The notes beneath the pieces are model-generated. The model was given only the letters and a program-made list of their open reading frames with translations. It had not been told where the DNA came from and ran no database searches. Shown here in pieces: positions 1 to 6,099 of a stretch of DNA of 26,903 bases. The DNA comes from a virus (Duplodnaviria; Heunggongvirae; Uroviricota; Caudoviricetes), in the IMG/VR virus record IMGVR_UViG_2917413769_000006, positions 1 through 26,903 of that record, one strand, 5' to 3'. A program made the translations under genes and the position numbers. Positions within the stretch are counted from its first letter, which is position 1; every line of letters starts with the position of its first letter.

Positions 1-273
1 ATGAAAAACAGAGAATCCAATGTCAGCAGCCTGCAAGAATTAGCCGATTTTAACGTCAGCTATTCCCTGCTCACAAACGAAGTCTATCTGTCTGCATCAT
101 TCATCGATAACATGGCCTGCATACCACATTGGCCAGTAAAGGAATTCCCAGATCAGTTTATGTGTGATCAGTTTATGTGTATCTCACGAACTCGCGCAAA
201 AGAACTGATAAATGAGTTACAGAAGGCAATCAACTACATGGATGCAGGTATTGATAACTCCCATGGTAGGTGA
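1..273 (+). CDS. hypothetical protein; 3' end interrupted by IS insertion (stop codon supplied by the IS terminus)
   Basis: 90-codon ORF from the first base of the window; its stop TGA (271-273) is the first 3 nt of the IS left end. Contains a perfect in-frame 15-bp tandem duplication (151-165 = 166-180, DQFMC twice). No recognisable family. Confidence 0.4.
   Translation: MKNRESNVSSLQELADFNVSYSLLTNEVYLSASFIDNMACIPHWPVKEFPDQFMCDQFMCISRTRAKELINELQKAINYMDAGIDNSHGR
151..180 (+). repeat. perfect 15-bp tandem duplication gatcagtttatgtgt x2
   Basis: Direct reading: 151-165 and 166-180 are identical; in frame within ORF 1-273; each copy carries a GATC site. Confidence 0.95.
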
Positions 274-334
274 TGTAGCCCCCAGAAACACCGGACAGTA
301 GCTGTATCTCCAGATAAGAGATAGGCTTGAATAT

Positions 335-685
335 ATGTCTAACACTAACGCCAATTTTGAGATGACCGGGATCCTGTTAGGGCAAGAAGTCCGTAAACGT
401 AAAACTCCTCAGGAGAAAATCGCCATTATCCAGCAGACGATGGAGCCGGGTATGAATGTCTCCCATGTCGCCCGCCTGCATGGTATCCAGCCCAGCCTGC
501 TGTTTAAATGGAAGAAGCAATATCAGGAAGGCAGCCTCACCGCCGTTGCGGCCGGAGAGGAAGTCGTTCCTGCTTCTGAGCTTACAGCTGCTCTGAAGCA
601 GGTCCGGGAGCTTCAGCGCCTTCTGGGCAAGAAGACGATGGAAGTTGAGATCCTGAAAGAAGCGGTGGAGTACGGCCAGTCGTGA
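335..685 (+). CDS. IS3-family transposase OrfA (HTH DNA-binding, InsC-like)
   Basis: 116-aa ORF with ATG at 335; strong resemblance to IS2 OrfA; ends TGA 683-685 immediately before the orfB start. Confidence 0.9.
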
Positions 686-687
686 AA

Positions 688-1569
688 ATGGATAGCGCAC
701 GCGCCCTTGTTGCCAAAGGACGGGGAATAGCCCTGGTCAGCCGCACCATGGGCGTGTCGCGTGCGCAGCTGTCACTGCGAGTTAACCGTTCTGCCGACTG
801 GCAGGACAGGCGCTGTAACCGGCGTAATGACGAAGCAGACGCTGAAATACTGACGGATATCCTCGATATCATCAGCGATATGCCGAGTTATGGTTATCGA
901 CGCGTGTGGGGCATCCTGCGCAAGCAACGTCGCACTGAGGGAGAGCCACCGGTGAACGCCAAACGGCTTTACAGGATAATGAGCGAGCATAACCTGTTGT
1001 TGTTGCATGACAAACCAGAGCGACCGAAGCGTGAACACAAGGGAAAAATCGCGGTGGCAGAAAGCGATATGCGCTGGTGTTCAGACGGCTTCGAGTTCGG
1101 CTGCGACAACGGTGAAAAACTGCGGGTGACGTTCGCGCTGGACTGCTGCGACAGAGAGGCCATAGACTGGGCAGCGAGCACGGGAGGCTACGACAGTTCG
1201 ACCGTACAGGATGTGATGCTGAGGTCGGTGGAAAAGCGCTTCGGCGACAGGTTGCCGGACACACCAGTGCAGTGGTTGACGGATAACGGTTCAGCGTATA
1301 CTGCGCATGAAACGCGGAGGTTCGCCAGAGAGCTGAATCTTGAGCCCTGTACAACAGCGGTGAGCAGTCCGCAGAGTAATGGCATGGCCGAACGGTTCGT
1401 GAAGACGATGAAAGAAGACTATATCGCGTTCATGCCAAAACCGGATGTGAGAACAGCCCTGCAAAACCTTGCAGCAGCGTTCACGCATTACAATGAAAAC
1501 CACCCGCACAGCGCGCTGGGATATTACTCTCCGAGGGAATACCGGCGGCAGCGGGCATCGTTAACTTAA
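688..1569 (+). CDS. IS3-family transposase OrfB (DDE integrase-like catalytic domain, InsD-like)
   Basis: ORF in the -1 frame relative to orfA; ATG at 688 (MDSARAL...) with GTG at 682; rve-type motifs ([21 protein letters not shown]). The A6G slippery motif that IS2 uses for the OrfAB fusion is not present here (sequence is CAGTCGTGAAAATGG). Confidence 0.9.
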
Positions 1570-1627
1570 GATACAAAAGCGGTCCGGAGATAGCGGGTCA
1601 AGATCATAACTCCCATGGTAGGTTCAA

Positions 1628-5487: not shown

Positions 5488-6099
5488 ATGAATAAATCAC
5501 AGTTTCAGAAGGCGGCTAATATCAGCGCCGAGTTAGCTGCGCGTTGGTTTCAGCCAATTGATGCGGCGATGGCTGAATTTGGCATAACTTCTGCCGATGA
5601 TCAGGCGATGTTTATCGCTCAGGTGGGGCATGAATCTGGAGGTTTCACACGAATTGTGGAAAACCTGAATTATTCTGCTGATGGCTTAAAAGCAACTTTC
5701 GGAAAGTATTTCCCCGGCGACACCGCTCAACAATACGGCCGCACTGCTGATCATCCGGCGGATCAAAAATCAATTGCAAATATTGTTTACGCCCACCGGA
5801 TGGGGAATATTGCAGAAAGCGATGGCTGGAATTATCGCGGTCGCGGCCTGATTCAGATTACCGGGCACGACAATTACCGGGATTGCGGCGCTGGCCTGGG
5901 TGCCGATTTGCTACTGGTTCCGCAGTTGCTGGAGCAGGACGAATATGCGGCTCGTTCGGCAGCGTGGTTCTTTGCCTCGAAAGGCTGCCTGAAACGCAGT
6001 GGCGATATTACGGCAGTAACAAAAATCATCAATGGTGGCACCAATGGCCTTGATGATCGTAAAGCTCGCTACGAAAAAGCGAAATCGGTACTGGTATGA
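5488..6099 (+). CDS. endolysin, glycoside hydrolase family 19 (chitinase-like lysozyme)
   Basis: 203 aa; motifs FIAQVGHESGGF, NYRGRGLIQITG, KIINGGTNGLDDR typical of GH19-type phage lysozymes; position in lysis cassette. Confidence 0.85.
   Translation: MNKSQFQKAANISAELAARWFQPIDAAMAEFGITSADDQAMFIAQVGHESGGFTRIVENLNYSADGLKATFGKYFPGDTAQQYGRTADHPADQKSIANIVYAHRMGNIAESDGWNYRGRGLIQITGHDNYRDCGAGLGADLLLVPQLLEQDEYAARSAAWFFASKGCLKRSGDITAVTKIINGGTNGLDDRKARYEKAKSVLV

Follow-up and report, generated by a model that had tools for sequence, protein, structure and literature searches.

The DNA analysed here, called the window throughout, is a stretch of 26,903 nt (positions 1 to 26,903) of the IMG/VR virus record IMGVR_UViG_2917413769_000006, assigned to the Caudoviricetes, and corresponds to contig VATL01000016.1 of the Escherichia sp. 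E1130 assembly GCA_005781065.1 (0 mismatches over 6273 nt). It begins ~450 bp downstream of yccA, beside the 3' fragment of a tRNA, and is thus placed at a prophage attachment (att) site. Close to its left end, at 271-1606 on the + strand, lies a 1336-bp insertion sequence (IS) of the ISEcl1 type, a member of the IS2 group of the IS3 family, which is bracketed by two exact copies of the 16-bp sequence TAACTCCCATGGTAGG at 255-270 and 1607-1622 (a direct repeat, to which no strand applies). To the left of the element is an open reading frame (ORF) for a hypothetical prophage protein (1-273, + strand; WP_135493636.1 of Escherichia sp. E1130) whose product matches no Pfam or NCBIfam family, and to its right is a serine invertase fragment (1628-1987, - strand) which retains the C-terminal 119 aa, with Pfam Resolvase profile positions 79-144 and HTH_7, and is not interrupted by the IS. 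Duplications made by IS3-family elements are described as conserved and typically 3-5 bp (PMC10045372, PMC3299598), which makes the 16-bp repeat of the window atypically long. The initial annotation of this DNA had recognized the exact bracketing repeat, the likeness of the element to IS2 and the unusual length, and on all three points it is borne out by the present analysis.

The boundaries of the element are set independently of the repeat by end-to-end megablast matches (1-1336, ~96% identity) to 72 E. coli records and 1516 plasmids, and every retrieved copy starts with TGATGTAG and ends with CAAGATCA; it follows that no base of the repeat lies inside the IS. A repeat finder returns 18 nt (254-271 and 1606-1623) because the last base of the IS, A, and its first base, T, match the adjoining target bases by chance. 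The termini are imperfect inverted repeats, the left starting 5'-TGATGTAGCCCCC (271-315, + strand) and the right ending ...GGGTCAAGATCA-3' (1562-1606, + strand, with GATC at 1602-1605); when the first 45 nt are aligned with the reverse-complemented last 45 nt, the two share the blocks TGAT, CCC, CCGGAC and TGTATCT. Imperfect terminal repeats with TG...CA ends are an IS3-family trait, conserved in all copies as TGATGTAG...CAAGATCA, and the end type of the lineage can be written TGA...CAAGNNCA.

Within the element, orfA (335-685, + strand; 116 aa) encodes an HTH_Tnp_1 DNA-binding protein resembling the IS2 TnpA repressor (PF01527, E = 1.5e-18) and is overlapped, as is also characteristic of the family, by orfB (682-1569, + strand, in the -1 frame relative to orfA; 295 aa), which combines HTH_21 (PF13276) with an rve DDE core (PF00665, E = 1.3e-18; rve_3, PF13683). 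The 96% copies in RefSeq are annotated as joined coding sequences with the name 'IS3 family transposase, programmed frameshift', and by this annotation orfB of the window is predicted to be expressed as an OrfAB fusion; since both frames are open, the element is probably active. The general IS3 transposase model is passed (NF033516 transpos_IS3, 200.6 bits against a cut-off of 160), and the best NCBIfam matches are to IS2 TnpB (422 bits, cut-off 597) and IS2 TnpA (168 bits, cut-off 229), both under their cut-offs, so that the element belongs to the IS2 group without being IS2 itself. The element falls outside IS481 and IS1202, its OrfB reaching 96 bits on the IS481 model NF033577 transpos_IS481 (cut-off 224).

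Published accounts give ISEcl1 as 1336 bp (PMC8805313) and as a member of the IS2 group of the IS3 family (PMC8805313, PMC10425158). The window element agrees with it in length, family and group, and the 90% protein cluster to which it belongs includes a member that NCBI names 'IS3-like element ISEcl1 family transposase', which lends indirect support to its description as ISEcl1-like. Differences from the form common on E. coli plasmids and chromosomes amount to 52 of 1336 positions, and the window copy is therefore an isoform or close relative. The ISfinder reference for ISEcl1 comes from Enterobacter cloacae (AF342826).

The insertion alters the last two codons of ORF 1-273, changing its end from ..HGRFN* to ..HGR* with the loss of two residues, and the opening TGA of the IS (271-273) serves as the new stop codon. 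The initial annotation had put the insertion exactly where the stop codons of this ORF and of the invertase would overlap in a CTAG; this placement has to be corrected, as the IS occupies the final codons of the ORF and CTAG follows at 1628-1631, 5 nt after the right-hand repeat. Across the 26.9-kb window the 16-mer occurs at these two positions only, with no further copy when up to two mismatches are tolerated (chance expectation 0.01 matches).

The state of the locus before insertion can be seen at the yccA-adjacent position of two E. coli chromosomes, those of strain 44 (89.6% identity) and of a mussel ST536 isolate (87.4% identity), where the homologous sequence is uninterrupted. In each of these alleles the sequence is present once (GATAACcCCCATGGcAaGTTCAACTAG and GATAACTCCCATGGTgGGTTCAttTAG) and leads directly into ...TTCAACTAG, where the small ORF and the convergent recombinase gene have overlapping stop codons. 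The latter gene is complete in these relatives (567 nt), and the invertase of the window has lost its N-terminus through a rearrangement separate from the IS. An empty-site allele was not found in the phage collection, nor did an exact scan of viral contigs find the left IS end. With one copy of the sequence in each related empty allele, the 16-bp repeat of the window is a genuine target-site duplication. The same ISEcl1 insertion, both 16-mers and a 15-bp tandem duplication located further to the left are present in a second independent run (Logan assembly, SRR6148301), and an assembly artefact of a single data set is therefore dismissed.

These alleles bear directly on the proposal, made in the initial annotation, that the element had entered or split two pre-existing tandem 16-mers with a normal short duplication. 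Small duplications do arise at this locus, as the unrelated 15-bp tandem at 151-180 attests, but both related empty alleles carry one copy; moreover, a prefix of the 16-mer never equals its suffix at any length, so that an event of 1-5 bp in a tandem array cannot yield two full flanking copies. Repeats of 15/16 bp likewise flank 38 other insertions at unrelated sites, and three other insertions, in ydeE, a DUF262 gene and pdeG, were verified against exact empty sites. Taken together, these observations leave the pre-existing duplication with a negligible probability.

The tandem duplication itself, a perfect 15-bp unit (GATCAGTTTATGTGT, twice), lies inside ORF 1-273, ~90 bp away from the IS. 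Neither E. coli relative has it, and it shows no flanking microhomology and has a unit length equal to that of an ISEcl1-type duplication. An ISEcl1 insertion at this place that was later lost precisely at both ends could have left it as a footprint, or it may simply have arisen by slippage.

Comparison of the flanks of other copies reveals that the long repeat is a property of the whole lineage and not a local accident, so that the checks proposed in the initial annotation, on empty sites and on further copies of the IS, proved to be the apt ones. Complete E. coli replicons contain eight other copies at seven distinct sites, flanked by repeats of 15, 15, 15, 15, 15, 16 and 5 bp whose sequences are mutually unrelated, so six of seven sites are of the long class and one is of the 5-bp class. 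The survey was extended by scanning for OrfB among contigs from one genome per species and among metagenome contigs, which contributed 160 loci, and the pooled set comprises 97 distinct insertion sites from E. coli, other Enterobacterales, Sodalis and metagenomes. Long flanking repeats are found at 39 of the 97, measuring 15 bp at 24 sites, 16 bp at 14 sites and 14-15 bp, in degraded form, at one. Perfect repeats account for 22 of the 15-bp sites and 12 of the 16-bp sites, four more (two of each length) have one mismatch, and the degraded case, also with one mismatch, was scored as 14 bp. The repeat is 5 bp long at a single site and missing at 57, and lengths of 6-13 bp or above 16 bp do not occur. 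Of the 40 repeat-bearing sites, 39 thus depart, with 15/16 bp, from the 3-5 bp of the IS3 family and the 5 bp of the IS2 group, and one has 5 bp.

Long repeats occur in Escherichia, Yersinia, Citrobacter, Atlantibacter, Klebsiella, Pantoea, Scandinavium, Ca. Sodalis and assorted metagenomes, and on one contig of 5.36 Mb all five copies have them. The clade extends to elements with 75-83% OrfB identity and somewhat different tips: those with TGAACCGGCCCC...CAAGGACA gave duplications of 16 and 16 bp, and those with TGAGCTGGCCCCC...CAAGAACA and with TGAGTGGGCCCC...CAAGATCA gave 15 bp each. Elements with tips TGA...GCCCC / ...CAAG(A/G)(T/A)CA whose OrfB is 75% or more identical to that of the window copy therefore produce 15/16 bp at essentially every intact insertion and only rarely 5 bp. 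An aberrant transposition or repair event confined to the window copy, as the initial annotation had also suggested, would accord with the published IS2-group duplication of 5 bp (PMC10425158, PMC10045372, PMC3299598); however, the long class recurs at 39 independent sites in many genera, which makes it the norm of the lineage, and a one-off origin of the window repeat is extremely improbable.

The repeat-less copies have a marked distribution, since before identical flanks were merged they numbered 60, of which 32 were from Ca. Sodalis endolongispinus, 23 from metagenome contigs and five from other genomes (one of them the 5-bp case). The Sodalis genome alone accounted for ~50 of the 80 loci that were retained after scanning the genomes. 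In three pairs of the sampled Sodalis copies the halves of one 15/16-bp duplication are split between different copies, an exchange of flanks which indicates recombination between IS copies. The authors of an IS1202 survey likewise explain their repeat-less members by recombination between copies (bioRxiv 10.1101/2022.12.17.520857).

Two further observations were made in the course of the survey. The genome of Ca. Sodalis endolongispinus has undergone a massive expansion of a relative of ISEcl1 (~90% nucleotide identity), many copies of which are internally deleted and most of which have no flanking repeat, and the reciprocal halves described above indicate IS-mediated rearrangement of this symbiont genome. 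Repeated sequences on metagenome contigs are a classic cause of chimeric joins. An element on metagenome contig SKEX01000905.1, which lacks flanking repeats, combines a long-duplication left tip (TGAGCTGGCCCCC) with an IS2-type right tip (GGGGCAAATCCA) and is either an apparent hybrid between these two types or a chimera of assembly.

The diversity of the duplicated sequences bears on a third proposal of the initial annotation, namely that the repeat reflects a conserved target motif of 15-16 bp, or homology-driven insertion, and hence site specificity. The 16-mer of the window does contain a near-palindrome, CTCCCATGGTAG, but the 24 fifteen-bp and 14 sixteen-bp duplications, aligned with 10-nt flanks, yield no consensus and no symmetry, information content reaching at most ~0.4 bit at any position. 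The targets are correspondingly varied and include ydeE, the DUF262 gene, IS150, integrase fragments and plasmid genes. A target motif is on this evidence very unlikely to account for the repeat.

Further evidence that the repeats arise on insertion comes from controls in which the pre-insertion sequence was rebuilt with one copy of the repeat and searched in 5426 E. coli genomes. The ydeE site, which has a 15-bp repeat, was recovered uninterrupted in 2158 records at 99% identity or more, the DUF262 gene site (15 bp) in 20 and the pdeG site, which has the 5-bp repeat AATAC, in 2978; at each site the five listed matches are 100% identical over 500 nt. Between the DUF262 and pdeG sites the IS copies do not differ at any of their 1336 nt, and both encode WP_097741260.1, and thus one element has made both a 15-bp and a 5-bp duplication. 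The sharp bimodality of duplication length, and the origin of both classes from one element, argue for two discrete target-capture geometries and not for a sloppy spacing.

A mechanism can be proposed by reference to IS2, which moves by a two-step route, first as a figure-of-eight and then as a minicircle; once the minicircle junction has been cleaved, its 3'-OH ends attack both target strands symmetrically (PMC3299598). From its homology to IS2, the ISEcl1-type element would follow the same copy-out-paste-in route by way of a figure-of-eight and a minicircle, the abutted ends of which would be cleaved and then joined to the two target strands, and the length of the duplication would equal the stagger between the two joinings. 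In its usual target-capture geometry the attacked phosphates would lie one helical turn wider apart than in IS2 (5 + ~10.5 = 15-16 bp) and would thereby remain on the same face of the DNA, and the same protein would still be able to adopt the 5-bp geometry. The wider spacing might have its source in another pairing of catalytic subunits, another multimer or another path of the target DNA.

A lineage-wide duplication could also have a cause other than helical-phase spacing, such as sequential single-end joinings by separate complexes, or a variable loop or wrap of the target. Kojima 2023 (PMC10045372), remarking on ~10-bp steps in duplication length, suggests inner versus outer subunits, alternative multimers and DNA looping, with 'no clue' as to mechanism, and the variation between 15 and 16 bp does point to some slack. 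Uncoupled joinings would, however, be expected to give a broad distribution, whereas the lengths found are sharply bimodal, 5 versus 15/16 bp, one turn of B-DNA apart, as a rigid two-site complex acting on one face predicts. Such other causes we consider unlikely, with a probability well above that of the alternatives treated earlier.

Taken as a whole, the repeat is best explained as the ordinary duplication made when an ISEcl1-type element entered a small prophage ORF at its 3' end, in a lineage that normally produces 15/16 bp, probably by strand joining one helical turn wider, and we give this reading a probability of roughly 0.85. Several points weigh against it. The mechanism is deduced from duplication lengths, and the OrfB indels specific to the clade (see below) are correlative. 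The 5-bp event was found just once, and 57 of the 97 sites lack a repeat, for which recombination, deletion or chimeric assembly is held responsible, with direct demonstration in the three Sodalis pairs only. The empty site of the window is known from alleles 87-90% identical and not from the same species. Finally, the duplication lengths of ISEcl1 may already be recorded in ISfinder.

The full-text papers searched, ISfinder entries aside, yielded no stated duplication length for ISEcl1 or ISEc36 and no IS3-family element with repeats of 15-16 bp. Papers that mention ISEcl1 give the family-level '5 bp' or no length, those on duplication classes in IS481, IS1202 and IS481EU mention no IS3-family example, and in part of the search the sole match concerned the att sites of integrative and conjugative elements. 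A jump of one helical turn to 15-16 bp is thus unreported for the IS3 family in the literature searched, ISfinder entries apart.

This has practical consequences, since duplication length serves in IS annotation as a family signature and as a test of whether an IS-flanked segment has moved as a unit. On the resistance plasmids of Klebsiella and Enterobacter ISEcl1 is one of the most frequent insertion sequences; copies with ~96% nucleotide identity to the window element are widespread on plasmids of these genera, and ISEcl1 adjoins mcr-8 and many plasmid loci for resistance and metal resistance. If repeats of 3-5 bp are sought next to it, the 15-16 bp signature will be overlooked, or will be misread as an att site or an anomaly. 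Direct repeats of 15-16 bp should also increase precise excision by slippage and thereby affect the stability of gene knock-outs caused by ISEcl1.

Several features of the locus and its surroundings lie apart from the duplication. The right tip of the element contains a Dam site, GATC, at 1602-1605, one base from the cleaved right end (CAAGATCA), which is not present in IS2-type tips (CAAATCCA). In a Klebsiella methylome study, a GATC that lies immediately downstream of a tnpB of the IS2 group (IS3 family) on IncFIB plasmids is reported to lack methylation consistently (PMC7985491); this may be the GATC of the IS right tip, and would then suggest occupancy of the end by protein. Further into the window, in the region 1628-2180, the invertase fragment (1628-1987), which lacks the catalytic N-terminus, gives way abruptly at ~1988-2000 to the last ~60 codons of an mEp237-like C5 cytosine methyltransferase gene on the opposite strand. 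This switch is a deletion or recombination junction by which the remnant of a prophage with a tail-fibre invertase has been joined to a lambdoid prophage, the latter carrying a Q antiterminator, holins and a GH19 endolysin. From position 1990 of the window on there are almost no matches in the phage database, just the end of the mEp237-like methylase and a DUF1367 gene. Between yccA and the start of the window (5550-6000 of the stretch taken from the source contig) lies, in reverse complement, the 3' portion of a tRNA gene (…TGGCGGAAGCGCAGAGATTCGAACTCTG…); ARAGORN found no complete tRNA upstream of the window in this contig, just the 3' fragment, which is probably a duplicated att half-site of the prophage remnant.

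The closest comparison for the ISEcl1 lineage is with IS2 itself. Both are ~1.33 kb long and comprise orfA (HTH) and orfB (rve DDE) with a -1 frameshift, their imperfect terminal repeats of ~40 bp are homologous (GCCCC...CCAGAC blocks), their OrfB proteins are 64-68% identical, and they presumably share the pathway from figure-of-eight to minicircle to insertion. They differ in that IS2-type elements duplicate 5 bp (PMC3299598) and the ISEcl1 lineage 15-16 bp. The nearest relatives with IS2-type tips (TAGAYTGGCCCC...GGGGYCAAATCCA), found in Aeromonas, Klebsiella michiganensis, Lonsdalea and Enterobacter sichuanensis, have 5-bp repeats at six of the seven loci surveyed and 4 bp at the seventh. 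The tips differ too, the left being canonical 5'-TG in the ISEcl1 lineage and 5'-TA in IS2 and the right CAAGATCA as against CAAATCCA, differences that are correlative. Alignment of OrfB shows in the long-duplication clade a consistent insertion of two residues, an insertion of one and a deletion of two, all three between the HTH_21 region and the catalytic core, within the segment of residues ~45-120 of the window OrfB, together with fixed substitutions.

It is conceivable, at odds a little short of even, that a subclade of the IS2 group which includes ISEcl1 switched its default stagger from 5 to 15-16 bp, by one turn, with the same protein still able to make 5 bp; were this the case, the tandem at 151-180 might be the footprint of such an element. 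An E. coli-compatible element would then be separated by a few small indels from a well-studied sister, IS2, which makes 5 bp, and the structural basis of the difference would become testable. The IS2-group pair of 5 and 15/16 bp, with one element able to make both, would offer a compact and genetically tractable system for the question of whole-turn steps.

Discrete classes of duplication length are known from other families. Those of IS1202 are divided among its subgroups, ISAba32 with 5-6 bp, ISTde1 with 15-17 bp and IS1202 with 27-28 bp (bioRxiv 10.1101/2022.12.17.520857), and both IS481 (6 or ~15 bp) and IS481EU (~4, 15 or 25 bp) present discrete classes, sometimes within one family (PMC10045372). 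The ISEcl1-type element has in common with all three an rve-type DDE transposase, TG...CA ends and length classes about one helical turn apart, its own being 5 and 15/16 bp with none between. These are families other than that of the ISEcl1-type element, and the likeness is functional only; if the proposed mechanism holds, the 'quantised duplication' of IS481, IS1202 and IS481EU would enter the IS3 family. The classes of IS1202 are split by subgroup and by larger indels, unlike those of the ISEcl1 type, and more than one class is made within a single family in IS481EU and by a single identical element in the ISEcl1 type. In the length of its usual duplication, the ISEcl1-type element resembles the ISTde1 subgroup of IS1202 and the 15-bp members of IS481.

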